Below are positions 4,522 through 52,527 of a stretch of DNA of 64,000 bases, in pieces (within the stretch, counting starts at the first letter, position 1; every line of letters starts with the position of its first letter). Made by a program: the position numbers and the translations under genes. Below the pieces are notes generated by a model that was given only the letters and a program-made list of their open reading frames with translations, had not been told where the DNA came from and made no database searches. Source of the DNA: an uncultured Gammaproteobacteria bacterium. GTDB taxonomy: Bacteria > Patescibacteriota > Microgenomatia > UBA10105 > UBA927. The stretch covers positions 449,319 through 513,318 of the forward strand of contig CAZVTT010000001.1 in the NCBI GenBank assembly GCA_964629685.1. Reading direction: 5' to 3'.

Positions 4522-5549
4522 TGGAAAGAATTCCGATATTCGTTTTTACCGGTTGCACTGCTACAGGAAAAACTGCGGCAGCGTTATCGTTTGCGAAAGA
4601 TATTGGCGGGGAAATAGTTAGTATTGATTCCAGGCAAATATATCGCCACCTGAACATCGGAACAGGAAAGGATATTCCGTCTGATGCTTTTCTACTTCCC
4701 AATACCGTTGTCGTAAATTTTAGAAAAGAAGAATGTTCAGTTTCTCCATACTCTATCTCAGACGTACCGGTTTGGTTGTATGACAGCATTAATCCAAACC
4801 AACAATGTAACATTGCGCTGTACAGTTTGTTAGCCCGCACTGTGATTCAGCATATACACGAGAGAAATAAACCGGTAATACTAGTTGGCGGAAGCGGGTA
4901 TTACCTTTCGTCCGTACTCATGGATATACCTACAATTCAAGTGCCCAGAAATGAATCATTACGACAGGAATTGAATGTTCTAACAGTTAGTGATTTACAG
5001 CAGCGGTTAATAGATATAAACGAATCGGTATTTACTACCATGAATGGTTCTGACAGATGTAATCCTCATCGCCTTATTCGGAAAATAGAAATAGCTATGT
5101 ATACCGGTTCCTCCATACAGCCAAGCCTGCATCCGGCATCATTGTATAACGCTACAATCGTGGCTTTTATCGCTACGAACGAATCATTAAAACAAAGAGT
5201 TACTCAGCGGGTAGACAAACGGCTAAAACAGGGAATAATATCGGAAATACGAGAGTTATTAAAGATAGGTTATAGCTGGGATTCACCGGGGCTTCAAACA
5301 ATAAGTTATATGGAGTGGAAACAATATATTACTTCTCAACATGAGAATGTACTGACACCGTCAATCCTAACTTCGGTACGGAATGAATGGATACGGCATG
5401 AATATCTTTACGCTAAGCGACAACTAACCTGGTTTCGGAAAATCCCTGATGTACACTGGATATCTGTCGACGATTCAGATTGGTCTGATAAGCTGGCTGC
5501 TTATCAGGATGCATGGTATACTATGGTTAAGAATGACTACAAAAGTTGA
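4521..5549 (+). CDS. miaA: tRNA dimethylallyltransferase
   Basis: P-loop FVFTGCTATGKTAAA and IPPT family motifs (SIDSRQIYRHLNIGTGK). Confidence 0.8.
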   Translation: MERIPIFVFTGCTATGKTAAALSFAKDIGGEIVSIDSRQIYRHLNIGTGKDIPSDAFLLPNTVVVNFRKEECSVSPYSISDVPVWLYDSINPNQQCNIALYSLLARTVIQHIHERNKPVILVGGSGYYLSSVLMDIPTIQVPRNESLRQELNVLTVSDLQQRLIDINESVFTTMNGSDRCNPHRLIRKIEIAMYTGSSIQPSLHPASLYNATIVAFIATNESLKQRVTQRVDKRLKQGIISEIRELLKIGYSWDSPGLQTISYMEWKQYITSQHENVLTPSILTSVRNEWIRHEYLYAKRQLTWFRKIPDVHWISVDDSDWSDKLAAYQDAWYTMVKNDYKS

Positions 5550-6549
5550 AATATCATACCGAACCATACTATTTATATTCGCATTCTTGGCTGCGATTTG
5601 GTTTCTACTTCAAATTCGGGATATAGTTTATCTCTTATTTGTGGCCTTTTTACTCATGACAGCCCTTAGGCCCATGGTTGAATGGCTCGCTAAATATAGG
5701 GTTCCCCGGGTTGTAGCCGTATTGTTGATTTATACGATTGTATTCGGATTTTTTGGTATATCTTTGGCAGGTGCGATACCTTCTTTAGTCTCTCAATCCG
5801 TCAGATTATTTACTGATTTACCGAATTTTGTCAGCCGGATGGTGCCGAATTGGAACATAGATGCCAGAGCATTTACTGAACAGATTGCCCCAATTAGTGA
5901 AAATGTAGTGAAGGTAACTGTCGGAATTTTTTCAAATATCGTTAACTTAATGACGGTTCTCGTGTTTAGTTTTTACTTTATTTTGGAACGTAGACATGCG
6001 GAGAAGATATTAACAGATTCATTCGGTTCTGAGGTTTCAAATCGGGTAATTTCGGTTGCACGGGATGTTGAAATTCGTTTGGGGGCATGGGTACGTGGTC
6101 AGTTGTTGCTTATGGTGATAGTAGGGGTGTTAGTGTATGTAGGATTAACAATTTTACATGTTGATTATGCATTACCCTTGGCAATTATCGCCGGAATATT
6201 GGAAATTCTCCCCATGATCGGGCCAAATTTAGCAGCAGTTCCCGGCATACTGGTAGCCTTAACGGTATCGCCCTTGCTTGCAGTTTCCGTGGCCGCTCTA
6301 TACTTTATTATTCAGCAAATAGAAAACAATATTATTGTTCCGCAGGTAATGAAAAGAAGCGTTGGTTTTTCACCCTTAGTTACTATTCTTTCATTAATGA
6401 TTGGAGCCAGAATGGCGGGGATTGTTGGGGCGGTATTGGCAGTACCGGTTGTTATTACACTGCAGGCAATACTACACGACATTTTGGTAAAGCAACCTAT
6501 TAAATTCGGAAAGCAGAAAAATGAAGACCACTCGTCATCTTCTTCATAA
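5533..6549 (+). CDS. AI-2E family transporter (UPF0118/PerM-like)
   Basis: 8 TM segments, typical AI-2E architecture. Start moved to the ATG at 5533, giving a 17-nt overlap with miaA instead of 101 nt. Confidence 0.65.
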   Translation: MTTKVEISYRTILFIFAFLAAIWFLLQIRDIVYLLFVAFLLMTALRPMVEWLAKYRVPRVVAVLLIYTIVFGFFGISLAGAIPSLVSQSVRLFTDLPNFVSRMVPNWNIDARAFTEQIAPISENVVKVTVGIFSNIVNLMTVLVFSFYFILERRHAEKILTDSFGSEVSNRVISVARDVEIRLGAWVRGQLLLMVIVGVLVYVGLTILHVDYALPLAIIAGILEILPMIGPNLAAVPGILVALTVSPLLAVSVAALYFIIQQIENNIIVPQVMKRSVGFSPLVTILSLMIGARMAGIVGAVLAVPVVITLQAILHDILVKQPIKFGKQKNEDHSSSSS

Positions 6550-6557
6550 TTATTCTA

Positions 6558-6976
6558 TTGTCGATATCTCATAAGCCAGATTCTGTTTTTCCTTTCGGAT
6601 AGACTCTCATTGCTCTAATGCCCGTATACTTTGACTCGCATCCCTGAAAATCAGGTACTGCCGAATGCATGGTCGTCGAGTCGGTCGCCGGTTGCAGTAG
6701 GTGGGATTGTCGCGTTTCATACGTCTTCCATTGCTTACGCTTTAGGAAGTCGATCGTCTCTGTGACTCTCTCACTCTGTCTGTTCAGAGATCGTCCGAGT
6801 ATCTTTCGATGTATCGGCACCAGTAATATACCCTTCGGTATATTATCACCGCTTACGCGGAGTCCCCCGCATTCTACTGTCTGGACTTTCCTCCCACCGG
6901 CACTTCGGCCTGAAACTTACAGTAAGTAAGTTCCAAAGACGAAGTACCGAAAGGCGAGAATCCGGATATCAACGGG
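6558..6976 (-). ncRNA. rnpB: RNase P RNA (bacterial ribozyme)
   Basis: Minus-strand transcript contains GGGAGGAAAGUCCAGAC (P4 5' strand with bulged U) and ACAGAAUCUGGCUUAU (P4 3' strand). A-U replaces the E. coli G-C pair at one P4 position, a compensatory change. It also has an AAUCCCACCUACUGCAA segment resembling the conserved GGUAAACNCCACC region. Terminal P1 pairs UUGAUAUC with GAUAUCGA. Elevated GC; no coding potential, both overlapping ORFs being spurious. Confidence 0.75.
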
Positions 6977-7059: not shown

Positions 7060-8751
7060 TTGAGTATGAAAACACTATTTGAACAGAAAAATTTAGTTGC
7101 AATTGATAAAGAACTGCATGCGTACCCCGAAACGGTGACGATAACCGGTAAAACCTTGTCGCTTACAGAAATTGCAGCGGTTGCCCGTTGTGGAAAACAG
7201 GTAGAATTTACCGACGATAAAGCAGTACGTAATAAACTTGTAGATTGTTATAGCCACATGATCTCCGATGTAAAAGCTGGAATACCAATATATGGATGCA
7301 ATACCGGATATGGAGCACGTGCGGGCAGGGTATTAAATCAAGGGAATGAAGCTCAGCGTCTGAAAATTGCCCGGAAAATTTCGGAAAGTATAGTACACAC
7401 GGATGTGACTGTGGGACCGGAATTGGGAAGGGATGTAATCAGGGCAGCTATGCTCATTCGGATAAATATGCTACTTCAGGGGGTAAGTGCTGTAAGGCTG
7501 GAGGACTTAAATCTTTATCGTACACTTATTAATCGGAATCTTATTCCCGTCGTAAACGCATACGGCGGATTGGGAGCTTCGGGTGATCTTGCCCACAATA
7601 GTCGTGTAGTTAGTGCCTTACGACAACTGCCCGGAACTTTCATGTGGGATGAAAAAGGCAAAAAATATGAAGCCAGAAAATTACTCAGAAAAAATAAAAT
7701 ATTGCCCCTGATTCTGGAGCCAAAAGCCGGTTTAGGATTGGTGAACGGGGATAATTTTTCTACTGCAGCTGCATCGCTTATTGCGATGGATTTAGTTGAT
7801 TGTATGCTTATCGCCGATGTTACCGGAGCGTTAGTCATAGAAGTTTTAAGAGGTTCTAACAGAACGTTTCATCCACTGCTTGCTACTGTCCGTCCTCATG
7901 CCGGGCAAAAGGAAGTAAGCCAAGTGTATAGATTTTTATTGGACGGGAGTAAACTAGCGTATCAGGAAATGACCGGACAATTGCCTCGGGAGAAAGGTGT
8001 AAAGATTCAGGATGCATACAGCCTCCGTTGTTTGGCCCAGTCAGAGGGATTAAATAGGGAGCAGGTTAAATGGGTGTTGGATACAATCGTTTGTAATGCA
8101 AATTCTGTTTCGGATAATCCTTTATGGGTTCCGCCGGGCGAAGAAACACCGGGAGAAACGCCATGGCAATGGGTAAGCGGCGGTAATTTTTTTGCAATGC
8201 ATATGAGTGAAGTTATAGACATCATGCGTAAAATTATGACCAGACTCATTAAACGAAATGATCGACAGCTTCACAGAATGGTATCTCCGCATGAAAACAA
8301 TGGTATGCCTGCTAATTTATCCGATAATCGTGCAATTTCCGCGTGCACATTTAAAGGCGTACAGCTGCAATCGGGAATGTTCGACGTATATTCCATGATA
8401 CTGGCGCAGCCGGTAAATACATTGTTTGGAATTCATGAGGAAAGTAATCAGGATATTACTCCTCATGCTTTAACATCTGCTATTCTTGCATGGGAGAATC
8501 TGAGACTTTTACGGTATTCCCTGTCAATGAATTTACTGGCGGTATCTCAAGCTGTAGATATTCGGGGAGGAAAAAAATTGCTGTCAGAAAAAACTAGACC
8601 GGTATATGAGTTTATCCGCGGACATGCCGGGTATGTAACGAAAGAACAGCCATTGGCTCCGCAAATTGAGCAAATTTCTTCAACTATTGTTGATGGGACG
8701 CTCAGTGAAGTAATACGTAAAGAAGTATTCGGAAATTACCTTCATGAATAA
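7060..8751 (+). CDS. MIO-dependent aromatic amino acid ammonia-lyase/aminomutase family protein (HAL/PAL/TAL-like)
   Basis: 563 aa; Ala-Ser-Gly MIO-forming triad inside GGLGASGDLAHNSR; overall HAL/PAL-like length and motif order. Confidence 0.8.
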   Translation: MSMKTLFEQKNLVAIDKELHAYPETVTITGKTLSLTEIAAVARCGKQVEFTDDKAVRNKLVDCYSHMISDVKAGIPIYGCNTGYGARAGRVLNQGNEAQRLKIARKISESIVHTDVTVGPELGRDVIRAAMLIRINMLLQGVSAVRLEDLNLYRTLINRNLIPVVNAYGGLGASGDLAHNSRVVSALRQLPGTFMWDEKGKKYEARKLLRKNKILPLILEPKAGLGLVNGDNFSTAAASLIAMDLVDCMLIADVTGALVIEVLRGSNRTFHPLLATVRPHAGQKEVSQVYRFLLDGSKLAYQEMTGQLPREKGVKIQDAYSLRCLAQSEGLNREQVKWVLDTIVCNANSVSDNPLWVPPGEETPGETPWQWVSGGNFFAMHMSEVIDIMRKIMTRLIKRNDRQLHRMVSPHENNGMPANLSDNRAISACTFKGVQLQSGMFDVYSMILAQPVNTLFGIHEESNQDITPHALTSAILAWENLRLLRYSLSMNLLAVSQAVDIRGGKKLLSEKTRPVYEFIRGHAGYVTKEQPLAPQIEQISSTIVDGTLSEVIRKEVFGNYLHE

Positions 8752-10141
8752 TTCAACGGCAGTCGACCAGGCTATCGATTTGTTCCGCACCGTTTATGAA
8801 TCCTCTCCAGCATATAAGCATTTTATTGATTCACGGGGTATAGAACCAAAAGCAATAAAATCGGCCAGTGATTATTTCGGTGTACCTATGACCGATAAGG
8901 ATAATTACATTCGTAAGTATCCCTTTCAGGATCGACTGTTCGGTGGTAAATTACCCAGTGATTACTATATGATCTGTTCGAGCTCCGGTACCAGCGGCGA
9001 ACCGACTTTTTGGCCGAGGGATATAAATATTGATGGTAGTTTGGAAAAACGAAAAGAAGCGTTATACGAAGAACATTTTCAAATTGGTAAAAAGAAGACC
9101 TTATGCGTTATTACGTTTGGTTTAGGAGTGTGGACAGCCGGAATGTTAACAGCGAAGCTCTCTTGGGCAGCTGCCCGGGGAAATAAATTTACGGTAGTTA
9201 CCCCCGGGATAAATATTGAAAACACATTCGGACTACTTAAAGGGTTATCTCCGTTTTATGACCAGACACTTATTGTGGGGTATCCGCCATTTTTATCTGA
9301 TTTTGTTGAATATGCGATTTCCCAGAAGCTGTCCCTGAAGCAGTACAGCACTAAATTGTTGTATACCAGTGAATATGTAAGTGAGCAATGGAGAAATGAA
9401 ATGGCGGCACGGATCAGTAAAACCGGCAGTAGATATGATGTCGTTAGTTTCTACGCCTGTTCGGACACCGGGATTATAGGAGCGGAAACCCGAGGAATTA
9501 TCGATTTATTGGACATGTGCGATGCGGATGATACTTTATGTCAGTCTTTATTTAATGCGAGTCAAACTCCCTCACTCGTCCAGTATGATCCGACAAAAAA
9601 ATTTATTGAGTCTATAGACGGAGAAATAATAATAACTGCAAATCAGCCAATGCCGTTAATTCGGTACAACATTCATGACCGCGGAGGTGTTTTGCAGGCC
9701 GATACAGTCAGGGAAGTATTTAAAGCCAGACACAAACATACGCCAAAAACGTTTACCGGCGATAATTACGTCTATATTTTCGGAAGAATTGATGCGGTAA
9801 AACTGACGGCAAATATTTACATAGAAGATATAAAGTATTGTCTGGAGCGATCCCATATTTATGAAAAACTTACCGGTCATTTCCAGTATGGCATAGTTAA
9901 ATCGAAAACGTTAAGGAATCGCCTGAAAGTAAAAGTGTTTATAAAACCGGGTGAATCAATTAGCTCTAACGATAAAATAGTATTTGCAGCTAAATTTTAC
10001 GAACATTTACTCGAAGCAAATAACGATTTTAATATGATTCAAAGCGGAACAAAAATTGAACCTTTTCAGTTTGAATTTACTGATGAGCCCGATGATACGG
10101 CATACAAAAATAGTAAATTAAAGTATTTTCTAAAATCATAG
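8744..10141 (+). CDS. PaaK/coenzyme F390 synthetase-like adenylate-forming ligase
   Basis: SSGTSGEPTFWPR matches the PaaK-family AMP-binding motif SSGTTGKPT; 8-nt overlap with the upstream lyase gene. Confidence 0.65.
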   Translation: MNNSTAVDQAIDLFRTVYESSPAYKHFIDSRGIEPKAIKSASDYFGVPMTDKDNYIRKYPFQDRLFGGKLPSDYYMICSSSGTSGEPTFWPRDINIDGSLEKRKEALYEEHFQIGKKKTLCVITFGLGVWTAGMLTAKLSWAAARGNKFTVVTPGINIENTFGLLKGLSPFYDQTLIVGYPPFLSDFVEYAISQKLSLKQYSTKLLYTSEYVSEQWRNEMAARISKTGSRYDVVSFYACSDTGIIGAETRGIIDLLDMCDADDTLCQSLFNASQTPSLVQYDPTKKFIESIDGEIIITANQPMPLIRYNIHDRGGVLQADTVREVFKARHKHTPKTFTGDNYVYIFGRIDAVKLTANIYIEDIKYCLERSHIYEKLTGHFQYGIVKSKTLRNRLKVKVFIKPGESISSNDKIVFAAKFYEHLLEANNDFNMIQSGTKIEPFQFEFTDEPDDTAYKNSKLKYFLKS

Positions 10142-10145
10142 AAAT

Positions 10146-11222
10146 GTGAAAGTTCCAGTTCAATCCACGATACTCTCATTCAAATCTTTGGCAGACATAG
10201 AATCTTTTGTCAGACGGCAAGAGTATGTTCCGATTATTCATGATATAGCAAAAGACCTATCCCGTGAATTATTTTTGGCAGAGCGTCCTTCCGTATATTA
10301 TGCTTCGCCCGATAGTCAGACATCTGCGTTTGACAAGCATTGGAAAGATTACGCTGGCGTAAACGATATCGAAGCGGGGAAATGGTTATATTGGGAATGG
10401 AGCGGAGATTTATGGCATTTATTGACAGCACCGGAGTATTATCGTCTCAGAACCATCCGGAATCGTAACATTATTTCGCCTGAAGAGCAGGTAAAACTAC
10501 AGAATGTAACCGTTTCGGTAGCCGGATTAAGCGTAGGACTAAATTCATTACTTTCGTTCGTGAGGTTAGGGATTGGAAAATCGTACAGATTAGCGGATTA
10601 TGACAGTGTTTCTCTCAGCAATTTTAACCGTTCCTTGTACTCATTACCGCAACTGCAATCTCAAAAAGTCTTAACTGCGGCTCGGGAAGTACTTTCCGTA
10701 GATCCGTTTATTAGCATCGACATTTTCCCCCAGGGTTTAAAAGAAACGAGTCTCTCTGAGTTTGTAATGGGCTCGGATCTTATTCTGGATACATTTGATA
10801 ACTTTGCTTTAAAACTGCTTTTACGTAAGGTAGCAAAACAATTTCGAATACCCGTGATTTCCGGTTTTGATGTAGAATTCGGTTCGGTATTATTGGTGGA
10901 GAGATATGATACGGAGCCGGATCTTGATGTGGGATTTTTCTTAAATGGAGTTTCCGAGGAATCTCTGTATGAGGTAACCACAGCAGAAAAGAAGACGGCT
11001 GCGTTTATTCATATTATCGGAGAAGAGTATCATTCACAGAGTATGCTTGATTCAGTGCTTGGAGTAGGGAAGCAGCTTACCGGTTATCCGCAATTATCTA
11101 TTGCTACCTCGCTAACTGCCGGAATATTTACTTATGCTGCTCTCCAGGTACTTACCGGAAAGAAAAAACATTCTCATAGACAATATATTTCGCTTCCCGA
11201 TGCGGTTAAAGGCTGGTCGTAA
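10146..11222 (+). CDS. ThiF/MoeB/E1-like fold protein with degenerate nucleotide-binding glycine motif
   Basis: GTG start 5 nt after upstream stop. VSVAGLSVGLNSLLSFVRLGIGKSYRLADYDSVSLSNFNRS aligns with the ThiF Rossmann region (GxGxxG then D.D.VE.SNLNRQ). DLILDTFDNF..IPVISG matches the second ThiF motif. Confidence 0.5.
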   Translation: MKVPVQSTILSFKSLADIESFVRRQEYVPIIHDIAKDLSRELFLAERPSVYYASPDSQTSAFDKHWKDYAGVNDIEAGKWLYWEWSGDLWHLLTAPEYYRLRTIRNRNIISPEEQVKLQNVTVSVAGLSVGLNSLLSFVRLGIGKSYRLADYDSVSLSNFNRSLYSLPQLQSQKVLTAAREVLSVDPFISIDIFPQGLKETSLSEFVMGSDLILDTFDNFALKLLLRKVAKQFRIPVISGFDVEFGSVLLVERYDTEPDLDVGFFLNGVSEESLYEVTTAEKKTAAFIHIIGEEYHSQSMLDSVLGVGKQLTGYPQLSIATSLTAGIFTYAALQVLTGKKKHSHRQYISLPDAVKGWS

Positions 11223-11270: not shown

Positions 11271-13397
11271 ATGGGTCTGCTCATTTTGACAGTGTTCGTA
11301 ATTGCTAATACCATTCTTGGCCTAGCAATATACCTCAATAATCCCCGCAACTCAACAAATAAGTTGTTCTCGGTTCTTATTTTTGTTTTAACCCTTTATC
11401 TGGCAATAAACACGCAACTATCCCTGTTTCAGGATGTGACTATCAAGTTATTCCTATCCAGGTTCATTATTTCTTTAGGTTCATTAATAAATCTGTTGGT
11501 ATTTCTTTTTTTGACTACGTTTCCAAAAGAACGGATTACCGTATCCAAGACTGTTCTACTGGTGCTTTATATTCTTACCGCCGGCCTATTTACCGCAGGG
11601 TTTACGCCGTTAATCTTTACCGGGATTGACGTACAAAATAATGTTGTAGTTCCGACCCCCGGCATTTTAATGCCGGTATTTTTGCTCCATACATTGGGTT
11701 TAGTTCTTGCAGGAATAGTATCAATTGGGATTAGGTATTGGAAAAGCCGTGGATTGGAGAAATCCAGGATACGTTATGTGCTGCTTAGCTTCGTGGTGTT
11801 GTTTTCTCTAATTATTTTTTTAAATTTTATTCTGACGGTATTTTTTAAAATAGGTGATTTTGTTCCGTTTTTACCCCTTTATATTCTGGTTTTTAATTTG
11901 CTGGTCAGTTATGCAATCGTAAAGCACAGGTTGATGGATATTCGGGTTTTAGTTGCCCGTGCAGTGGTATATGCATTACTCTTACTTTTTGTAGCTGTAG
12001 TATATGCATCGACGGTATATTTTCTCGGTCAATTATTTTTTACTCTTAAGCTAAATAGTTTGGAAATTGGGATACTTATCGCGCTTTCGGTAGTGATAGC
12101 AATTACATTTCACCCCGTTCAACGTTTACTGGAAAAACACACTACCGGGCTGCTGTTTAAAAATAGATACGATACGGAAAAATTACTGAGTCGCTTAAGT
12201 AAAATAATGTCTTCCACATTCCGGTTGCAGGATTTGACTCACGATATTCTTCAGGAAATCCGACAAGAAGTTAAAATAACCAAAATTGCTTTCATTTTAT
12301 TGGAAAAAGATACAATCGCTGATGTTAAGAGCGAAGGGTTCAGTTCACCGCCAACTTTGGATGAAGATGAAATAAAACGGTTAGTCTCTACCAGAGAAAC
12401 GGTTATCTTTGACGAGTTAGATGAAGGTGAATTAAAAGATATTCTTCGTAAGCTGGGTTTTTCCGTAGTGGTACATTTGCGTACCGAAGGATCTCAGGTC
12501 GGTATATTAGTGCTTGGTGTAAAAGAATCAGGGGATATTTATTCGGATCAAGATTTGGATTTTTTGGAAATTGTTGCCCCTGAAATGGCTGTTGCGATTC
12601 AAAATGCTAAATCTTCAGAAGAGATCCGGAGATTTAACACGACGCTGAAGGACGAAGTCAGTCACGCTACAAGTGATTTAAGAAATGCCAATGAGAAACT
12701 TCAGGAACTTGACAAGCTTAAGGATGAATTCGTTTCCCTTGCATCTCATGAGTTAAGAACACCCATGACTGCAATAAAAGGATCAATCTCGACGATTATA
12801 GAAGGATATGCCGGCGATATATCTCAAGAAGCACGGGAATTCCTGATGTCTGCCTATAATGAGAACGACCGATTAATCAGACTGGTAAATAACCTTCTAA
12901 ATATTTCCAGAATTGAAGCGGGCCGGTTTATTTTTAACCTTCAGAAAGTAAATATGGATACTATTATTACTGAAGTAGTAAAAAATTTACAAATGGCTGC
13001 GAAAGAGAAAAATTTCTATCTTAAGTTTGAACGATTAACGGAGTTAACGGCTGTAAATGCAGACGAAGATAAAGTTAAGGAAGTATTAATCAATTTAATC
13101 GGAAATGCCATTAAATTTACACATGAGGGTGGTATAACCGTACGTGCAAAACGGGAAGGAGATTTTATTATTACCTCAGTCTCCGACACTGGTCACGGTA
13201 TTTCAAAAGAAGACCAGGAAATCTTATTTCAGAAGTTTTCCAGAGTACAGAAAGAATATTCAAAACAGGCTGGTGGAACGGGATTGGGGTTATATATTAG
13301 TAAGCAAATTATCGAAGGACACAAGGGAAAGATTTGGCTGGATTCCGATGTGGGGAAAGGAAGTACGTTTTATTTTTCACTCCCAGTAGCGGCATAG
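11271..13397 (+). CDS. Sensor histidine kinase with N-terminal polytopic (HisKA_7TM-like) domain, GAF-like region, HisKA and HATPase_c
   Basis: About 8 N-terminal TM helices; H-box LASHELRTPMTAIKG; G-boxes GTGLGLYISKQII and GKGSTFYFSLP. Confidence 0.85.
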   Translation: MGLLILTVFVIANTILGLAIYLNNPRNSTNKLFSVLIFVLTLYLAINTQLSLFQDVTIKLFLSRFIISLGSLINLLVFLFLTTFPKERITVSKTVLLVLYILTAGLFTAGFTPLIFTGIDVQNNVVVPTPGILMPVFLLHTLGLVLAGIVSIGIRYWKSRGLEKSRIRYVLLSFVVLFSLIIFLNFILTVFFKIGDFVPFLPLYILVFNLLVSYAIVKHRLMDIRVLVARAVVYALLLLFVAVVYASTVYFLGQLFFTLKLNSLEIGILIALSVVIAITFHPVQRLLEKHTTGLLFKNRYDTEKLLSRLSKIMSSTFRLQDLTHDILQEIRQEVKITKIAFILLEKDTIADVKSEGFSSPPTLDEDEIKRLVSTRETVIFDELDEGELKDILRKLGFSVVVHLRTEGSQVGILVLGVKESGDIYSDQDLDFLEIVAPEMAVAIQNAKSSEEIRRFNTTLKDEVSHATSDLRNANEKLQELDKLKDEFVSLASHELRTPMTAIKGSISTIIEGYAGDISQEAREFLMSAYNENDRLIRLVNNLLNISRIEAGRFIFNLQKVNMDTIITEVVKNLQMAAKEKNFYLKFERLTELTAVNADEDKVKEVLINLIGNAIKFTHEGGITVRAKREGDFIITSVSDTGHGISKEDQEILFQKFSRVQKEYSKQAGGTGLGLYISKQIIEGHKGKIWLDSDVGKGSTFYFSLPVAA

Positions 13398-13430: not shown

Positions 13431-13802
13431 ATGGCAAAAATATTATTTGTTGAAGATGACCCGTTAATATTAAAAATATACACGACCAGACTTTCAGCCG
13501 ACGGGCATGAGGTCGTTACTGCAGAAAATGGCGAAGACGGATTGGCTAAAGCCAACGAGAGTAAACCGGACCTAATAGTGCTGGACGTAATGATGCCGAA
13601 AATGGACGGTTTTGCGGTACTGGAAAAACTTAGAATTCAGGAACAGTTTAAAAATATTCCCATTTTGTTGTACTCCAATCTGGGTCAGGAAGAAGAAATT
13701 GCCCGCGCTAAGCAAATGGGGGCCACTGAATTTATTGTGAAAGCTAATATTTCTCCGACAGAAATGGTAAACGTAATTAAGCAGTATTTACATTTAGCGT
13801 AA
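13431..13802 (+). CDS. Single-domain response regulator (CheY-like receiver)
   Basis: ILFVEDDPLI...LIVLDVMMPKMDGF receiver motifs; 123 aa with no output domain. Confidence 0.8.
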   Translation: MAKILFVEDDPLILKIYTTRLSADGHEVVTAENGEDGLAKANESKPDLIVLDVMMPKMDGFAVLEKLRIQEQFKNIPILLYSNLGQEEEIARAKQMGATEFIVKANISPTEMVNVIKQYLHLA

Positions 13803-13856: not shown

Positions 13857-15533
13857 ATGATACTGCCCGAAATACTTCGTGAAATAATTCTTAAATCCGG
13901 CTTTGTTAGTCAGAAAGACTTCGATCAGGCACAAAAAGCTTCGGAAGAACTTAATAGGGATGTTACGGATGTGCTCATTTACCGCGGGTTAATTAGTCAG
14001 GAAGTATTGGGCCAATTAATTGCCGAATATTACCAGGTACCGTACGCGAAGCTTGCCCACAAAGTGATTCCCGAAAATGTTTTGAAATTAATTCCGATTG
14101 AAGCGGCATCCACCTTTCGGATATTACCGTTTGCGCTTGATGCAACCACGGTAAGTCTGGCAATGGAGGATCCTTCGGATTTGGAAGCCAGGGAGTTCGT
14201 AAAACGAAAATCCGGACTTATGGTGAAACCGTTTTATGCGAGCATGCCTGATTTGTCTGGGGCATTAGGACAATATAAACGAAACATAAAAGATATTTTT
14301 ACGACGATAATTGAGGAAAACGTCCAAAAAAGCTCTGTGGAAACGGATGATATTGCTAAGCTCGCATCTGATATTCCTGTTATTAGAATTCTGGATACCA
14401 TTTTGGAGTATGCATCCGGTGAGGGTTCTTCAGATATACATTTTGAAGCAATGGAATCATCCTTTTTAGTCCGATTTCGTATAGACGGTGTTCTGCGTGA
14501 TATTTTAAATTTGCCGAAGACCATACATGCAGGAATTGTTGCAAGAATAAAAATTCTTTCACAGCTCAAAATCGACGAACATCGGATTCCCCAAGACGGG
14601 AGATTTAAATTTAAAGTACAGGAAAATTATATTGCACTTCGTGTTTCTATTTTGCCTTCTTTTTACGGTGAAAATATTGTATTGCGTATTCTTCCTGAAT
14701 CCGCCAGACCTTTATCTTTGGAAGAATTGGGGCTTACCGGACATAATTTGGAATTAGTTAGGCATAATATCCGAAAACCGCATGGAATGATCCTGGTAAC
14801 CGGGCCAACGGGATCCGGTAAGACTACTACGCTTTATAGTGTTTTAAACATTTTAAATACCACGGAAGTAAAAATTTGTACTGTGGAAGATCCGGTTGAA
14901 TACGGGATAGGTCGGGTTAACCAAACTCAAATAAATCCTCAGGCTGGATTAACGTTTGCAGCAGGACTTCGTTCACTACTAAGACATGATCCCGATATTA
15001 TTATGGTTGGGGAAATTCGTGATAAAGAAACCGCGGAAATGGCTATTCATTCTTCATTGACTGGGCATTTAGTGCTTTCTACATTACACACGAACGATGC
15101 TGCGGGAACTATTCCCCGGTTTCTGGATATGGGCGCGGAAGGTTTTCTGGTTGCTTCGACGTTAAATTTGGTTATTGCCCAACGTTTAGTAAGGAAAATA
15201 TGTACCAGTTGTATTGAGACGTATGTGCCGGGTGAAGAAACGATTGCGTATCTTAAACGATTTTTGGGTGAGGGAGAGTTATCACATCAGTTCTACCGCG
15301 GCAAAGGATGTCAGGAGTGTAATAGAAAAGGATACAAAGGGAGAATAGGCATATATGAAATATTGGAAATAAACGATACCATCCGGGCGCTTATTCTAAA
15401 ACGGGTAGCAGCTGAAGAAATTGCTGAAGCCGGAGTAAAAAATGGTATGACACGCTTACTCCGCGATGGTATAGATAAAGCCAGCGGCGGTCTTACGACA
15501 ATCGAAGAAGTACTGAGGGTGGTACGCGAGTAA
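13857..15533 (+). CDS. pilB: Type IV pilus assembly ATPase PilB (GspE family)
   Basis: Walker A LVTGPTGSGKTTTLY; GspE N-terminal domain; C-terminal tetracysteine CTSC...CQEC. Confidence 0.9.
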   Translation: MILPEILREIILKSGFVSQKDFDQAQKASEELNRDVTDVLIYRGLISQEVLGQLIAEYYQVPYAKLAHKVIPENVLKLIPIEAASTFRILPFALDATTVSLAMEDPSDLEAREFVKRKSGLMVKPFYASMPDLSGALGQYKRNIKDIFTTIIEENVQKSSVETDDIAKLASDIPVIRILDTILEYASGEGSSDIHFEAMESSFLVRFRIDGVLRDILNLPKTIHAGIVARIKILSQLKIDEHRIPQDGRFKFKVQENYIALRVSILPSFYGENIVLRILPESARPLSLEELGLTGHNLELVRHNIRKPHGMILVTGPTGSGKTTTLYSVLNILNTTEVKICTVEDPVEYGIGRVNQTQINPQAGLTFAAGLRSLLRHDPDIIMVGEIRDKETAEMAIHSSLTGHLVLSTLHTNDAAGTIPRFLDMGAEGFLVASTLNLVIAQRLVRKICTSCIETYVPGEETIAYLKRFLGEGELSHQFYRGKGCQECNRKGYKGRIGIYEILEINDTIRALILKRVAAEEIAEAGVKNGMTRLLRDGIDKASGGLTTIEEVLRVVRE

Positions 15534-15534
15534 T

Positions 15535-16752
15535 ATGGCTAATTTTACATATAAGGCGTTGGATACAAACAAAATTGTTTCATCCGGAGTACTTTCTGCA
15601 AAAACCAGGGATGAAGTTGCCCAACTGCTTACAAAAAAAGGATTAACTCCGCTTAGTGTCAGGGAAGTAGCAGAAAAGGCGGTAATTAAAGGAACTATTC
15701 CTCAAATCGAGAAAATTACTTTTTGTAGATATATGGGAATAATGCTCTCCTCGGGTTTATCACTTTCGGAAGGAATAGAAGTACTTCATGAAGAAACGAA
15801 ACATCCGCTCATGAGAAGAATCCTCGGTGATATGACATATAGCCTTGAACAGGGTCAGCAATTGTCTTCAATATTTGAAAGATATCCTGATGTATTTGAA
15901 TCATATTTCCTTACATTAACCCGGGCGGGGGAAATCAGCGGAAAACTAGCGGAAGTGTTCAGATATTTGGAAACGGAACTTCGTGCCGAATATAGTCTAA
16001 ATTCGAAAGTAAAAGGTGCGTTACTTTATCCCGGAATCGTCTTTACAGCCATGTTAGGAATCGGTGTCCTGATGTTCTTTTTCGTACTTCCTCAGATTGG
16101 AAAAGTATTCCTGAGTTTAAAGTTACCGCTTCCGGAAATAACCAGAATGTTATTTGTTGTAAGCATTGCCTTGTCTCAATTTATGATCCCCATATTAGGT
16201 GGAGGTGTAGCAGGTGCTATAGCGCTTTTTTTTATATTAAGACGCCCAGGAGCAAAGTCAGTAATTTTTCTTTTTATTCGGCCATTACCACTGATCCGGA
16301 ATTTAATCCAGAAAGTAGATATGGCCAGATTCAATAGAATATTTGCGACGCTTATCAGGAGTGCCGTACCTATAACGGAGGCGGTGGAAATTTCATTAAA
16401 TACGCTTTCTTGGTACGAGTACCGGAACTTGTCTAAAGAAATACCTGAAGAAATAAAAAAAGGAAAAGCACTTTCGGCTGTAATAAAGGAACATAAGGCT
16501 TTTCCGTCGTTAATGGTGCAAATGATTGCCGCCGGAGAAAAAACCGCAACGCTTGACAGTACTCTGGCTGATCTGGCGAGTTTTTATGAAAATGAAGTTG
16601 AAGAAGAAGTTAAAAGTTTAACGCAAATAATTGAACCCGTGTTGATGTTGCTGGTAGGAGTAGCCGTGGGTGGGATGATTCTCTCAATTATTGCCCCCAT
16701 TTACAGTGTCGTAGGAAGTTTTCAGCAAGCTGCAGGCGGACCCCCGCAATAA
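15535..16752 (+). CDS. pilC: Type IV pilus platform protein PilC (GspF family)
   Basis: 405 aa, two GspF-type repeats with 3 TM segments, directly follows pilB. Confidence 0.85.
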   Translation: MANFTYKALDTNKIVSSGVLSAKTRDEVAQLLTKKGLTPLSVREVAEKAVIKGTIPQIEKITFCRYMGIMLSSGLSLSEGIEVLHEETKHPLMRRILGDMTYSLEQGQQLSSIFERYPDVFESYFLTLTRAGEISGKLAEVFRYLETELRAEYSLNSKVKGALLYPGIVFTAMLGIGVLMFFFVLPQIGKVFLSLKLPLPEITRMLFVVSIALSQFMIPILGGGVAGAIALFFILRRPGAKSVIFLFIRPLPLIRNLIQKVDMARFNRIFATLIRSAVPITEAVEISLNTLSWYEYRNLSKEIPEEIKKGKALSAVIKEHKAFPSLMVQMIAAGEKTATLDSTLADLASFYENEVEEEVKSLTQIIEPVLMLLVGVAVGGMILSIIAPIYSVVGSFQQAAGGPPQ

Positions 16753-16760
16753 CAGGAATA

Positions 16761-18176
16761 CTATTGTTCTTCCCAGGTTATGAATTCATATTCACCCTGT
16801 GTTGGAAAGTATGGTGGCGGATTAAAGTACAGGTTTGGATCATAGGTTATATCTCTTGTTATAAAACCCGATGTTGGACCGGTGCCAAAGTTCCAGTATG
16901 ACTTTTGGTTACTGATGACTGAACCGTATATCGTCAGATTATTCCTGACGGCGCTACCAAACGAGCTACAACCCGAATAATTATAATTATGTCGGATTAT
17001 TCTGCCGTTGGAAGCTAATAGTGCTCCGTCAATTTCAAAATTTGTCGGGACATTATAACCAAAATATATATTATTCTGTGCAAATACACCTAGCTGGGAA
17101 TGTCCGTCTTTTGCGATATAGGTCAAATTGCTCGGTATCCATATATTCATGAAGTTGGTATTTATGGGAAAACGAGCTGCCACGACAGTTGCTCTGCCGT
17201 TTACGGTACCGTTCACCCACAAATGATCTTCTATAAAAATTATTGGTTTGGCATCGAGGCTGTATGTTCCTACGGCAGTTTCTGAAGTAATCTGCTGGTT
17301 AAGATTTTCACAGTTATTCTCTACACTCCAACCTCTTCTGTTATTTGCGGCTGTGACTTTTGTAATGGTTACTGTTCCTACGCTGTTAAAAACGAGATGA
17401 TAACCCAACGCGTTAGAATTACCCAGGTATATTCCGTTTGCTTGAGCTGCCGTTTTCATCACGCTAAAATCGATTGCCAGACTATTGAAATCGACCTGAG
17501 GTACCGGGAACTGCCATAAGCTTTGCGGTCCACCAGCACCCCATACGCCATTTCTGTTCTGTGATGGCGTGCATCCCGTTTCCGTCCCACATGTATACGT
17601 TTGTTTGGCGCTTTGAATTGTTGAATCATTCGTCCCATCCATACGAATTCCACCGTTTGACATTACTTTTCCATGTACGGTAATTCCTGAGCCAAACCAG
17701 ACGTTGGCATTATGGAGAAATGCAAATTTCGAAAGTGAGGGTATTCCGTATTTTGCGTATACAGTTCTTTTAATTTCCGGATGACTATTAATCCAGCCTT
17801 GTGAAGTGATGGTTACGATCGAAGATCCAGAAGCTGGGGGCGTAATAGTAAGACTAAACGTGCCATCAGTATTCCCATATGGGTCATTAAGTGTCTTTAT
17901 GTATGGACCAGGTAACCCTGTTCCGTCTTTAAAGTCTAACGGATCGTGTGCCAAATGCCATCGGTAATACTCAGCACCTGCCTGTGCGATTGTCAGTGAT
18001 TTTTCGAAAGCTTCAGAACGGGTTGCTGCAGTGTATTGTGTCGCGGCGACTAAAACCAACCCACCGACGGTTACGCTAATTACTAATCCGAATACCAGAA
18101 CGAGTATTGAAATACCCCCTGTATGAAACCGTTTATGTATAAACGTATATTGTAGGTATGAAAACAATTTCATCAT
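16761..18176 (-). CDS. Hypothetical pilus-associated secreted protein with N-terminal membrane anchor
   Basis: N-terminal hydrophobic segment without canonical prepilin G-F-T-L-I-E; last gene of the minus-strand pseudopilin operon; Gly/Asn/Thr-rich beta-type composition. Confidence 0.45.
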   Translation of the reverse strand: MMKLFSYLQYTFIHKRFHTGGISILVLVFGLVISVTVGGLVLVAATQYTAATRSEAFEKSLTIAQAGAEYYRWHLAHDPLDFKDGTGLPGPYIKTLNDPYGNTDGTFSLTITPPASGSSIVTITSQGWINSHPEIKRTVYAKYGIPSLSKFAFLHNANVWFGSGITVHGKVMSNGGIRMDGTNDSTIQSAKQTYTCGTETGCTPSQNRNGVWGAGGPQSLWQFPVPQVDFNSLAIDFSVMKTAAQANGIYLGNSNALGYHLVFNSVGTVTITKVTAANNRRGWSVENNCENLNQQITSETAVGTYSLDAKPIIFIEDHLWVNGTVNGRATVVAARFPINTNFMNIWIPSNLTYIAKDGHSQLGVFAQNNIYFGYNVPTNFEIDGALLASNGRIIRHNYNYSGCSSFGSAVRNNLTIYGSVISNQKSYWNFGTGPTSGFITRDITYDPNLYFNPPPYFPTQGEYEFITWEEQ

Positions 18177-18187
18177 ATAAGTATAAG

Positions 18188-18799
18188 TTATAGATTTGTT
18201 TTTAGACTACGGATTTGAACTCCGGAATTGAGTTCAAACGGTTGAGCTTTTGTCGTAGAGCTAATATTAATTCGTAACCGTACTGCGATATATTTGGTAT
18301 TTAATAATCTGTTAGCAGCGGAAAGGGGGTTGTTAACCGTGTCAGCCGGCCATTCACCGTTATAATATGTAAATATTGGTCCAGTCGATGTGTCAACATA
18401 ACTTGCGACAGTAGTAAATTGCTCATTTTGTGAAGGATAAGTTACCGGAACGGCAGTAGGCTGTATGACTCCGCGTACTAAATCGGTTCCGTTTAAAAAA
18501 TACCGTACTCTATCGGATCTATTATCATTTGTAACATCCGAGTAAAAAATTAGCGTCGTATTATCCGTTTGAGCTAAAGGCCATGCGCCATCGTCACCCA
18601 GTCTGGCTTCCCGTATTTCCCGAATCATTCTGGTTAATCCTGTTTGTGCTAATCCAATTGCCTGGTTTTCTTCATATGAGAATGAATAATTGTTAAAGTA
18701 ATAGGCAGAAAATACTGCCACCCCTGCGACAATGGAGGTAAACAGGAACACAGCTATTATAATTTCAAGTAAAGTGAATCCTTTAATATATTTGTGCAT
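18188..18799 (-). CDS. Type IV pilus minor pilin / pseudopilin (prepilin-type N-terminal domain)
   Basis: KGFTLLEIIIAVFLF prepilin cleavage/methylation motif. Confidence 0.7.
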   Translation of the reverse strand: MHKYIKGFTLLEIIIAVFLFTSIVAGVAVFSAYYFNNYSFSYEENQAIGLAQTGLTRMIREIREARLGDDGAWPLAQTDNTTLIFYSDVTNDNRSDRVRYFLNGTDLVRGVIQPTAVPVTYPSQNEQFTTVASYVDTSTGPIFTYYNGEWPADTVNNPLSAANRLLNTKYIAVRLRINISSTTKAQPFELNSGVQIRSLKTNL

Positions 18800-18800
18800 A

Positions 18801-20162: not shown

Positions 20163-20292
20163 TATTTCATCTTACAGAAGGAGACCTAATAGGTACAAGT
20201 CTACGACAGCAACTGGTGTATTCGTGATACAATTCTAGTATACACGTGCGGAACGTGTTATTTGCTGTATACGCGATATTTTAATACTGCCC

Positions 20293-51457: not shown

Positions 51458-52129
51458 ATGATTCCTTACATTGTCTTGATTGAAGACGACAACGATATAC
51501 AAAAATATTTGAAGGAGTTACTGGTAGATAATAATTTTACCGTAAAAACCGCAACTACCGGAATTGCCGGTCTTACATTGGTAAAACGTGCGGAACCAAA
51601 TCTGGTGTTATTGGATTTAACGTTACCAGATATGAAAGGGGAAAGTGTTTGTACGGAAATACGAAAAGAATACCCTAATCTCCCGATAATTATGTTAACG
51701 GCCAAAGACCAAGTATCCGATAAACTTAAGGGGTTTACCTTAGGAGCCGATGATTATATTACCAAGCCATTTGTAGCTGACGAGTTGTTAGCCAGAATAC
51801 GAGCTAGGTTAAAGCATCTTATTGCAGACAATCCCACAATGAGTATAGATGATTTAACTTTGAATATCGCTACATTTGAAGTTAAACGGGGAGAAAAACC
51901 TATTCAGCTTACTCCACAGGAATTTAAACTTCTAGAGTTTCTTATAAGAAACAAAGGAACCGTTTTAACCCGAGATGTTATTTTGAATCGTATCTGGATG
52001 TATTCGCCTGACGTGGAAAGCCGAGTGGTGGACGTTTATATGGGTTACCTGCGTAAGAAAATTGATGCCGGTTACAAAAAGAAATTGCTGCACTCAATAA
52101 GGGGTTTCGGGTATACGGTTAAAGACTAG
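51458..52129 (+). CDS. OmpR-family response regulator
   Basis: Receiver (LIEDDNDI...LLDLTLPDMKG) plus winged-helix output (LTPQEFKLLEFL...GFGY). Extended -10 TGGTATAAT lies 9 nt upstream of the ATG. Confidence 0.85.
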   Translation: MIPYIVLIEDDNDIQKYLKELLVDNNFTVKTATTGIAGLTLVKRAEPNLVLLDLTLPDMKGESVCTEIRKEYPNLPIIMLTAKDQVSDKLKGFTLGADDYITKPFVADELLARIRARLKHLIADNPTMSIDDLTLNIATFEVKRGEKPIQLTPQEFKLLEFLIRNKGTVLTRDVILNRIWMYSPDVESRVVDVYMGYLRKKIDAGYKKKLLHSIRGFGYTVKD

Positions 52130-52133
52130 TTAT

Positions 52134-52508: not shown

Positions 52509-52527
52509 AGTATTAAATAGACAAATG

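Follow-up and report, generated by a model that had tools for sequence, protein, structure and literature searches.

Three intact, co-directional and closely packed genes, for an MIO-dependent enzyme, a PaaK-like ligase and a ThiF-like enzyme, lie in a 64-kb stretch of DNA (the window, from the genome, roughly 950 kb in size, of an ultra-small bacterium of CPR/Patescibacteria type), and are followed on the same strand by genes for a sensor histidine kinase, a response regulator and type IV pilus proteins (Table 1). The three family assignments of the preliminary description were right, and all three reading frames are present as placed there; for the MIO gene, though, ATG 7066 is a likelier start than TTG 7060 (the recorded sequence is the 561-aa form). 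Read from the DNA, the MIO stop codon (8749–8751) and the PaaK-like ATG (8744) give the 8-nt overlap described earlier; the PaaK-like stop codon (10139–10141) and the ThiF-like GTG (10146) are separated by 4 nt instead of 5. The kinase gene starts 48 nt past the ThiF-like gene, and the response regulator gene 33 nt past the kinase gene. Scans for promoters and terminators did not outperform shuffled sequence, so that the operon structure is putative.

Table 1 Genes of the module and adjoining pilus genes; coordinates are those of the window.
Feature	Coordinates	Strand	Basis
MIO-dependent aromatic amino-acid ammonia-lyase (or aminomutase), distinct clade (type 1)	7066–8751	+	Pfam, ASG triad
PaaK-family adenylate-forming ligase, distinct subfamily	8744–10141	+	Weak PaaK profiles, AlphaFold model
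ThiF-like ATP-dependent cyclase (predicted), oxazolone-synthetase clade (TrzS/Rv1355c-type ThiF half)	10146–11222	+	Profile scores
Sensor histidine kinase, HisKA_7TM + GAF + HisKA + HATPase	11271–13397	+	Pfam domains
Single-domain response regulator, receiver alone, 123 aa	13431–13802	+	Pfam Response_reg
pilB, type IV pilus motor ATPase with MshEN domain	13857–15533	+	Profile matches
pilC, type IV pilus platform protein	15535–16752	+	Profile matches

The MIO protein, with its Ala-Ser-Gly (ASG) MIO triad, inner-loop Tyr (IYG) and the Arg of YSLRC, matches Pfam Lyase_aromatic at 336 bits (E 3.7e-100). No NCBIfam equivalog threshold is reached (HAL subfamily, 268 bits; PAL, 265 bits; HutH, 244 bits), the PAL and HAL models being about equidistant; the HutH model requires 539 bits, and the enzyme is not an ordinary HutH. 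Among solved structures, cyanobacterial PALs come closest (E 1.4e-51), and at 169 bits on the FlxA model the enzyme is not FlxA-like. Asn-Gln-Asp is present, which we take to be the PAL/TAL form and not the HAL form; His-Thr is found at the PAL Phe-Leu selectivity positions, and NGD where the solved relatives and the type-2 enzymes of related loci have NGT. The His, as read from the sequence, suggests tyrosine or a similar ring as substrate. As the active-site residues of this clade are unusual (His-Thr, NGD), any such substrate is putative, and the enzyme could be an aminomutase.

For the PaaK-like protein, the Pfam search gave no match, and matches to the PaaK model TIGR02155 (48 bits, cut-off 646) and to PaaK1 (E 3.6e-8) were weak. 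Its AlphaFold model (pLDDT 90.2) is closest to PaaK1/PaaK2; best Foldseek matches are PaaK1/2, BT_0428, NatL2/AjiA1, ClxA and HCL. The P-loop SSGTSGEPT, RYNIHD, GRxD and the C-terminal Lys458 are invariant or almost so across 32 relatives, and the family numbers 647 representatives at E ≤ 1e-30. NatL2, AjiA1 and ClxA, enzymes of benzoxazole pathways in the PaaK fold family, need no CoA to form an ester or amide bond. Their aromatic acid substrates are activated as adenylates, and they share the fold of the window ligase (Foldseek E about 1e-18) at only 15–18% identity. Instead of forming an amide, the PaaK-like enzyme could be a CoA ligase supplying an unlinked acyltransferase. In one paralogous setting the PaaK-like gene has DAHP-synthase-family, DHQ synthase and DHQ dehydratase genes alongside, another aromatic-acid supply.

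The third protein, described earlier as E1-like, belongs to the ThiF family (Pfam ThiF, 85 bits) but is not a generic E1: the Rv1355c/TrzS profile is its clear best match (194 bits, against at most 84 for ThiF/MoeB-type models), and it falls with the oxazolone cyclases TrzS/Rv1355c, TyzB and OxzB rather than with ThiF/MoeB. These cyclases convert N-acyl amino acids into oxazolones with ATP, and the Asp of their adenylation motif is needed for activity (PMC12856293, PMC10404671, preprint 10.1101/2020.06.11.147165). The family-invariant D218 of the window protein, within LILDTFDN and aligned with MoeB LDCTDN, sits in this motif, in keeping with an oxazolone cyclase. The oxidase of related loci matches the C-terminal half of the Rv1355c/TrzS profile (190 bits), and ThiF::oxidase fusions occur in loci L072, arranged MIO-PaaK-[ThiF::oxidase], and L023.

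Conservation was assessed in 81 loci with a relative of the PaaK-like gene, neighbours being counted within four genes. A ThiF-like gene was found in 51 loci, a histidine kinase gene in 52, an MIO gene in 33 and an oxidase gene in 27; PaaK, ThiF and kinase occur together in 42/81, and all four with MIO in 27/81. The genes are almost always co-directional, in several orders (MPTH, MTPFH, TPMFH and others). The adjacency of MIO, PaaK and ThiF is thus far beyond chance, and the coincidence that the preliminary description had allowed for fails, synteny being kept in so many relatives. Natural fusions join ThiF::PaaK (P0270) and Glu/Leu/Phe/Val-dehydrogenase::PaaK::ThiF (P0272), and the ThiF portions of both share 30–32% identity with the ThiF-like protein of the window (E 1e-40 and 4e-45); in Nocardia a PaaK–ThiF pair has overlapping genes (26% identity, E 2e-53). 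The partner enzyme is exchanged among loci, being a type-1 MIO enzyme, an FlxA-like tyrosine ammonia-lyase (the type-2 MIO enzymes, 639 bits on the FlxA model), a class I/II aminotransferase or an ELFV dehydrogenase, all of which, by family, take off an amino group. In many relatives the module also has methyltransferases and a flavin oxidase of nitroreductase type, neither of which accompanies the window module; exporters (ABC, MFS) and assorted tailoring genes also occur. The trio is a real unit, kept in many CPR/Patescibacteria-type genomes and usually coupled to a membrane sensor kinase. The end at 11222 first given for the module was too early, as the conserved unit extends through the kinase and response regulator genes.

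The HisKA_7TM membrane region of the window kinase (about nine hydrophobic segments, residues 1–287) is shared by 44 of the 46 kinases adjoining PaaK-like genes. A second kinase in the window is of a soluble PAS/GAF type. The response regulator (Pfam Response_reg, 88.5 bits) has no output domain; regulators accompany the module in 30 related loci and are mostly 120–154 aa long. Directly downstream lie pilB and pilC, with pilin-like genes and a PilM/PilN fusion further on (18188–21711); in 16 of the related loci, pilus genes are no more than 8 kb away, several modules being inside a pilus cluster. By this context pilB/pilC are a candidate output of the two-component pair and a putative part of the module.

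OxzAB (Pseudoalteromonas rubra), TyzACB and TrzAS (Mycobacterium tuberculosis; TrzS is Rv1355c) have a ThiF protein of the same clade as that of the window, with a conserved Asp-containing adenylation motif (PMC12856293, PMC10404671). In these systems as in the CPR module its gene is closely coupled to that of the presumed N-acyl amino acid-forming enzyme, and related CPR loci likewise have a nitroreductase/Acg-type flavin oxidase, adjoining or fused; the window, unlike them, has no oxidase. Further differences are the CPR hosts and the 7TM kinase, response regulator and pilus link, not reported for the oxazolone systems. Those systems use an acyl-CoA N-acyltransferase, whereas the CPR module has a PaaK-family ATP-dependent ligase and a deaminating enzyme in its place, so that the acyl group here is probably aryl-acrylate rather than fatty acyl. 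Clusters for N-acyl (dehydro)tyrosines (NasY, ThiF, nitroreductase and methyltransferase; stieleriacines, thalassotalic and kyonggic acids) have the same accessory set as the CPR relatives, without a described PaaK-like ligase, MIO enzyme or kinase, and their products influence other microbes (PMC12479983). Flexirubin biosynthesis shows the same lyase/ligase pairing for an aryl acid, in FlxA (tyrosine ammonia-lyase) and FlxY (putative acyl-CoA ligase; matched by the window ligase weakly, E 1.5e-4), but proceeds by polyketide-type assembly, machinery that the CPR module lacks; there a ThiF-like cyclase comes next. In CqsA/CqsS, LuxM/LuxN and AgrBD/AgrC, signal-synthesis genes adjoin a multi-pass membrane histidine kinase that senses via its membrane region. 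The CPR module resembles these quorum-sensing synthase–receptor pairs in gene arrangement; there is no sequence relation, the enzymes, sensor family (HisKA_7TM) and presumed chemistry differ, and CPR signalling is putative. The preliminary description knew of no described pathway of this kind, and our literature search found no paper on a MIO/PaaK/ThiF/7TM-kinase module; oxazolone formation by TrzS-type ThiF proteins, on the other hand, is described chemistry (PMC12856293, PMC10404671).

We tentatively propose, at a likelihood somewhat short of even, that the module makes an amino-acid-derived oxazolone-type compound, perhaps self-sensed by the 7TM kinase to control type IV pili. The small aryl-acid-derived metabolite suggested earlier is the favoured reading here too, each chemical step being drawn from homology. 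The MIO enzyme would deaminate an aromatic amino acid to an aryl-acrylic acid, as expected of its family. The PaaK-like ligase would adenylate this acid and couple it, directly or via a thioester, to the amino group of an amino acid, replacing the acyl-CoA N-acyltransferases (OxzA/TyzA/TrzA/NasY) of known systems; family, context and fusions point to an N-(aryl-acryloyl) amino acid. Like its closest characterised homologues, the ThiF-like enzyme would activate the carboxylate of the amino acid as an adenylate, with ring closure by the amide oxygen to give a 5(4H)-oxazolone. The flavin oxidase of many relatives would desaturate the product; as the window has neither oxidase nor methyltransferases, its product would be a saturated oxazolone or the hydrolysed N-acyl amino acid. 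The compound, or its build-up outside the cell, may be detected by the HisKA_7TM region, as conserved adjacency suggests, and the kinase would then phosphorylate the receiver-only regulator. In the weakest step, the regulator may work by protein contact, most plausibly on the adjoining type IV pilus machinery. Against this model stand the lack of a homologue of the flavin oxidase, the partner of known oxazolone cyclases, within the 64-kb window, a saturated oxazolone being labile, and some ten loci with PaaK and kinase but no ThiF and some nine with PaaK and ThiF but no kinase (several of them truncated at contig ends).

The kinase adjacency fits the sensing of an outside cue equally well and cannot separate it from a self-made ligand. 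The same pathway might thus make a compound that is not the kinase ligand, an effector, antimicrobial or surface/lipid-like molecule aimed at a host, with the 7TM kinase sensing host contact or a host-derived aromatic and coordinating product and pilus. CPR bacteria live attached to hosts, in keeping with such a role. Stieleria N-acyl dehydrotyrosines change biofilms of other species (PMC12479983) and tryptazolones are mostly found within cells (PMC12856293). We consider this rather unlikely: the regulator lacks a DNA-binding domain, so that nothing points to its controlling transcription of the enzyme genes directly, and the kinase stays with the enzymes through varied gene orders and enzyme swaps, like receptor–synthase pairs. 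Peptide or protein modification, an option raised in the preliminary description, is not favoured and seems improbable. Here the ThiF-like enzyme would activate a C-terminus or side chain (cf. MccB, PaaA, GrcB, IndF) and the PaaK-like enzyme attach the aryl acid; oxazolone enzymes apart, those ThiF-like enzymes that have been characterised in secondary metabolism have peptide substrates (PMC12596934), methyltransferases and exporters occur among the relatives, and the ThiF-like protein has an extra N-terminal domain of ~100 aa. This domain, however, could not be superposed on the domains with which MccB and PaaA bind peptides, and no precursor-peptide reading frame fits within the operon.

An MIO lyase and an aryl-CoA ligase also open the coumarate and phenylacetate routes, and JGI labels relatives phenylacetate-CoA ligase; a catabolic or salvage route, in which an aromatic amino acid or histidine is deaminated, the acid is broken down via its CoA thioester and the kinase detects how much substrate is available, is nevertheless very doubtful, given the PaaK score far below cut-off, the lack of downstream catabolic genes in the window and related loci, and a ThiF-like cyclase, flavin oxidase, methyltransferases and exporters that do not suit breakdown. 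Chromophore supply to a light sensor is barely credible: p-coumarate made by TAL would be attached by the ligase to a cysteine in the GAF domain that the window kinase has, as for photoactive yellow protein, where the tal-pcl-pyp arrangement likewise sets both beside a sensor protein, but this leaves the ThiF-like enzyme without a role, GAF, unlike the 7TM region, is present in only 14 of the 46 associated kinases, and thioester attachment is ruled out, the window kinase having no cysteine anywhere in its sequence.

For the proposed oxazolone-type product, oxazolones and N-acyl tyrosines are already suspected as signals (PMC12856293, PMC12479983). That the enzyme genes are linked with type IV pilus genes and with those of a 7TM kinase and its response regulator, which the preliminary description missed, is the most interesting feature of the module.

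Seven genes follow one another on the forward strand between 7066 and 16752, from the gene of the MIO enzyme to pilC, with an 8-nt overlap at the first junction and then gaps of 4, 48, 33, 54 and 1 nt, in that order. The preliminary description gave the same overlap between the MIO and PaaK-like genes, but its 5-nt gap before the ThiF-like gene is 4 nt on the DNA, and in place of its MIO start at TTG 7060 the ATG at 7066 is more likely, being preferred because the form on record has 561 aa. No free-standing small ORF fits into any of the spaces between the module genes, and a promoter and terminator scan did no better than on shuffled sequence. The apparent 500-nt space 5' of the MIO gene is taken up by a gene for RNase P RNA that lies on the opposite strand (class A bacterial; entire model 1-367 matched, E 2.4e-13), which at 46.8 bits against the Rfam gathering score of 100 was missed by the default Rfam scan; this space was accordingly rejected as a regulatory or precursor region, and two ORFs of 86 and 83 aa are spurious because they lie inside the RNA gene.

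Coordinates of features in the window (positions within the stretch)
Feature	Position	Strand
miaA	4521-5549	
AI-2E family transporter	5449-6549	+
RNase P RNA	6556-6973	-
ORF, 83 aa (spurious)	6569-6820	-
ORF, 86 aa (spurious)	6669-6929	+
MIO enzyme	7066-8751	+
PaaK-like ligase	8744-10141	+
ThiF-like enzyme	10146-11222	+
Histidine kinase	11271-13397	+
Receiver-only response regulator	13431-13802	+
pilB (MshEN domain in PilB)	13857-15533	+
pilC	15535-16752	+
Unannotated gene, 471 aa	16761-18176	-
Pilin-like protein, N-terminal methylation motif	18188-18799	-
Pilin-like protein, N-terminal methylation motif, CarboxypepD_reg/SpaA-like domains	18801-20162	-
PilM/PilN fusion	20293-21711	
Second two-component set	51458-54927	
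OmpR-type regulator	51458-52129	+
Second receiver-only regulator	52134-52508	-
Soluble PAS/GAF/PAS histidine kinase	52528-54927	-

The AI-2E family transporter gene stands 5' of the module, with the RNase P RNA gene in between, and its ORF shares about 100 nt with the end of miaA; one of the two boundaries is therefore probably wrong. It is syntenic with the MIO gene only in the two closest relatives (L007, which keeps the order miaA, transporter, MIO; L086, which begins at the transporter and has it before MIO) and was therefore left out of the module; it could conceivably export the product. The G+C content of the window is about 40%, and the nearest protein relatives belong to assemblies of Patescibacteria/CPR (Roizmanbacteria, Woesebacteria, Saccharibacteria, 'Patescibacteria group'); proteins identical to those of the window are encoded on a contig of 953,690 bp. 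The same proteins in the same order are found in CAYSQE010000001.1 (L001/L005), titled 'uncultured Gammaproteobacteria bacterium', and in JACQHW010000100.1 (L002), Candidatus Roizmanbacteria; 'Gammaproteobacteria' or 'Pseudomonadales' titles also stand on many loci whose gene content is CPR-like, and such record titles look unreliable.

The assignment of the first enzyme to the MIO family was borne out by a full-length match to PF00221 (336 bits, E 3.7e-100, profile positions 1-465 of 466); the Ala-Ser-Gly triad, the inner-loop catalytic Tyr and the carboxylate-binding Arg are all present. The motifs GGLGASGDLAHNS, IYGCNTGYG and QDAYSLRC are kept in 17 of 17 relatives of the window-type clade (type 1), L003 alone having Ser-Ser-Gly for Ala-Ser-Gly. 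An ordinary HutH was rejected on a score of 244 bits against the equivalog cut-off of 539, on the His-Thr pair and on the Asn-Gln-Asp motif. We take HAL to have a Ser-His selectivity pair and an Asn-Gln-Glu-Asp motif with a HAL-specific Glu, where the MIO enzyme has Gln, and the selectivity residues are thus not of the HAL type. Scores also fell below the cut-offs of the equivalog models for PAL (265 bits, cut-off 519), D-beta-Phe mutase (220, 800), BagA TAL (198, 1000), Tyr 2,3-mutase (188, 501) and FlxA (169, 700); as every curated cut-off was missed, the enzyme is placed in a separate clade, and from its sequence it may be either a lyase or an aminomutase. The HAL and PAL models lie at about the same distance from it, and its best solved relatives are cyanobacterial PALs. 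Where those PALs have Phe-Leu, the enzyme and the 16 relatives nearest to it show His-Thr or His-Val, with few exceptions (His-Ile in L012 and L007, Leu-Val in L072). All type-1 enzymes (the window and 16 relatives, e.g., L001, L031, L037) read 'NGD' where solved PAL/HAL relatives read 'NGT'; the type-2 MIO enzymes of related CPR loci carry 'NGT', like the solved relatives. The His at the first TAL selectivity position may point to a phenolic substrate. Type-2 enzymes have a Ser-His pair and score 639 bits (cut-off 700) against the model for the tyrosine ammonia-lyase of the flexirubin pathway, so at least the type-2 modules very probably begin with tyrosine.

The PaaK-like protein is, as judged from sequence and predicted model, a full adenylate-forming enzyme: the PaaK fold is predicted with pLDDT 90; the PaaK-type two-domain fold, P-loop, hinge and C-terminal Lys are all found; Foldseek returns PaaK1 (E 1e-21, TM about 0.6); and S80, G82, G85, R307, D312, G347 and K458 are invariant. 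It has no Pfam AMP-binding match and stands far from phenylacetate-CoA ligase PaaK, with 48 bits on TIGR02155 against a cut-off of 646. Its structural neighbours in Foldseek include NatL2, AjiA1 and ClxA, which we take to couple aromatic acids to nucleophiles without CoA. The partner of the PaaK-like gene varies among loci (type-1 MIO enzyme, FlxA-like TAL, class I/II aminotransferase or amino-acid dehydrogenase), and all these partners convert an amino acid into the carboxylic acid minus the amino group; the simplest reading of such deaminating partners, in a context of aromatic-acid supply, is that the PaaK-like enzyme would activate that acid. Paralogues of 35-40% identity occupy another conserved context (L004, L008-L011; e.g., L009:5374-11053), where the next genes encode DHQ synthase, type I DHQ dehydratase (dehydroquinase), a member of the DAHP-synthase family and a second AMP-binding enzyme; nearby are genes for an ABC-2 transporter, a QueC-like protein and a methyltransferase. 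Here the aromatic acid would have a different source, and CPR genomes thus seem to hold a further pathway that starts from such an acid.

The ThiF-like enzyme is the key to the interpretation of the module. It matched NF005901 (Rv1355c family) with 193.7 bits over residues 70-355, on the ThiF half of the model, whose full-length cut-off of 476 is for a two-domain protein and beyond the reach of a single domain; ThiF, MoeB and other models gave at most 84 bits. Profile scores thus suggest that it is closest to the OxzB/TyzB/TrzS clade and not to ThiF/MoeB/TcdA. A word-indexed homologue search with this protein reached few non-CPR relatives, and its best structural match is AclA (9egb). Residues D218 (in LILDTFDN), D151, D153, N159, R162 and K174 each show conservation of at least 90% across 52 ThiF-like relatives; the Asp of the adenylation motif is required in TrzS (PMC12856293). 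TrzS (Rv1355c) converts N-acyl tryptophan to tryptazolone by ATP-dependent cyclisation and then O2-dependent desaturation (PMC12856293), and the same conversion is carried out on N-acyl tyrosine or phenylalanine by TyzB/TyzC and by OxzB (PMC10404671; preprint 10.1101/2020.06.11.147165); according to a 2025 review, the oxazolone enzyme is the sole ThiF-like enzyme known for a small-molecule substrate (PMC12596934). We predict that the ThiF-like enzyme uses ATP to close the ring of an oxazolone from an N-acyl amino acid.

Unlike OxzB, TyzB and TrzS, the enzyme of the window has no adjacent or fused oxidase; related loci have one. In 27-30 of these, a 350-aa protein encoded 3' of the ThiF-like gene matches the other half of the Rv1355c model (190 bits) and also the Acg family of FMN oxidoreductases, and in L072 and L023 the ThiF-like protein and the nitroreductase-type oxidase are fused. 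Neither a nitroreductase-type flavin oxidase nor a methyltransferase was found in the 64-kb window; the four closest relatives (L001, L003, L006, L007) likewise have neither, yet L018 and L066, with the MIO type of the window, have the oxidase, which therefore looks like optional tailoring. The product in the window would be a saturated oxazolone or an open N-acyl amino acid; acid and alcohols break oxazolones down (PMC12856293). In known oxazolone clusters the cyclase goes together with an N-acyltransferase that depends on acyl-CoA, whereas the CPR loci have a PaaK-like ligase and a deaminating enzyme instead; no recurrent acyltransferase cluster in the place of OxzA/TyzA/TrzA/NasY was found in 81 loci, whose ORFs were partly profile-scanned. 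CPR bacteria are generally without fatty-acid synthesis, and an ATP-activated, amino-acid-derived acyl donor would make sense for them.

Linkage of the genes was assessed with an alignment of PaaK-like proteins, which, searched against 185,579 species genomes, gave 80 loci, whose ORFs were called and clustered; neighbours were counted within four genes of the PaaK-like gene in 81 non-identical loci, some closely related to each other. A histidine kinase gene was present in 52 of the 81, a ThiF-like gene in 51, a MIO gene in 33, a nitroreductase-type protein gene in 27 and a receiver-only regulator gene in 25; PaaK-like, ThiF-like and kinase genes occurred jointly in 42, and these three with MIO in 27. 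The genes are almost always on the same strand in variable order (MIO-PaaK-ThiF-kinase, MIO-ThiF-PaaK-oxidase-kinase, ThiF-PaaK-MIO-oxidase-kinase, and others), and shifting order with shared direction speaks for genes tied together by function and against an operon passed on in fixed form. When 1.84 billion representative proteins were searched by profile, 647 members of the PaaK-like family were found at E<=1e-30, among them two natural fusions, ThiF-like::PaaK-like (P0270, 880 aa) and Glu/Leu/Phe/Val dehydrogenase::PaaK-like::ThiF-like (P0272, 1242 aa), whose ThiF parts are 30-32% identical to the ThiF-like protein of the window and share its family motifs. In a Nocardia sp. (L085:4574-7143), a PaaK-like gene (476 aa, no Pfam match) overlaps a ThiF-like gene (380 aa), with TetR- and LuxR-type regulator genes on either side and no oxidase, MIO enzyme or kinase nearby; the pair is therefore present in Actinomycetota too. 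A MAG labelled Acidobacteriota (L072:6204-11620) has MIO, PaaK-like and a ThiF::nitroreductase fusion of 770 aa in a row, its MIO enzyme 52% identical to that of the window and its locus without a kinase; this gene set ties the module directly to the two-domain OxzB/TrzS architecture. The coincidental adjacency considered in the preliminary description was rejected on the 81-locus counts, the varied orders, the fusions and the Nocardia pair.

The kinase and regulator of the module have HisKA, HATPase_c, the phospho-acceptor His and the receiver domain; H493 is invariant in an alignment of 46 kinases. HisKA_7TM is present in 44 of the 46 full-length kinases adjoining PaaK-like genes, GAF in only 14. 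The window holds a second two-component set, whose kinase is a soluble PAS/GAF protein, unlike the HisKA_7TM kinase of the module. Module-linked regulators are nearly all receiver-only, and output would therefore be by protein contact. The kinase/regulator pair is followed by pilB and pilC, the type IV pilus cluster (13857-21711) adjoining the module; pilus genes occur in 16 loci, several with the module between pilBC and pilins. Different relatives carry exporters of the ABC or MFS type and methyltransferases of at least five unrelated kinds; communication systems show variation of this sort.

From the adjacency of their genes, we propose that the linked enzymes make the compound to which the kinase responds. 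The kinase may instead respond to a cue from outside, with the product acting on a host, and the adjacency data fit this and self-sensing alike. Peptide modification by the ThiF-like and PaaK-like enzymes, one of the roles considered for them, is weakened: there is no precursor ORF in the module of the window, the fold comparison is also against it, and the N-terminal peptide-recognition domain with nearby precursor peptide gene of RiPP ThiF enzymes (MccB, PaaA, GrcB, IndF) was not found. A catabolic operon was rejected, as downstream catabolic genes are absent from the window and the related loci and the cyclase, oxidase, methyltransferases and exporters would be left unexplained. A PYP-like chromophore system is excluded too: a p-coumarate thioester would need a cysteine, and the kinase contains none.

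There is a fair chance that the module is a new signalling system. Its fullest form, which we put forward tentatively and with more doubt than confidence, is a widespread, diversifying self-signalling of CPR bacteria, in which a deaminating enzyme, the PaaK-like and the ThiF-like enzyme would make an aryl-acyl amino acid or oxazolone from amino acids only; a dedicated 7TM kinase would detect it and act through the receiver-only regulator on type IV pili; the optional oxidase and methyltransferase would tailor the compound. The three enzyme families are known already, and for the chemistry of the cyclase there are close relatives that have been characterised. The literature searched yielded no partnership of a PaaK-like ligase with an oxazolone-type cyclase, no interchangeable deaminating enzymes or distinct MIO clade, and no HisKA_7TM two-component pair with pilus genes linked to such enzymes in CPR bacteria; nor was the module described in the literature searched on CPR lyase/kinase/pili, CPR quorum sensing, HisKA_7TM and Saccharibacteria genetics/pili. 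The oxazolone papers mention no ligases, CPR or kinases; they give the role of the compounds as unknown and a signal function as speculation only (PMC12856293; preprint 10.1101/2020.06.11.147165).

The PaaK-like/ThiF-like pair and its fusions hint at a route, perhaps independent of CoA, to N-acyl amino acids and possibly to new oxazolones, which is of interest to enzyme discovery. CPR bacteria are a large share of bacterial diversity, with tiny genomes generally without lipid and cofactor synthesis, so that a conserved multi-gene secondary-metabolite pathway is unexpected in them and must pay its way. In dozens of genomes an oxazolone-clade cyclase has one particular type of membrane sensor kinase beside it, often near or within pilus genes, and through this linkage the role of oxazolones becomes a matter of experiment, with a candidate receptor and a candidate output now named. 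The self-signalling reading, if true, would bring the first endogenous small-molecule signal proposed in CPR bacteria; oxazolone/N-acyl amino acid metabolites would gain their first receptor, and oxazolones a role in physiology. In cultivated CPR bacteria, attachment to the host depends centrally on type IV pili (PMC11623550), and a signal that controls them would therefore bear on the episymbiotic lifestyle.
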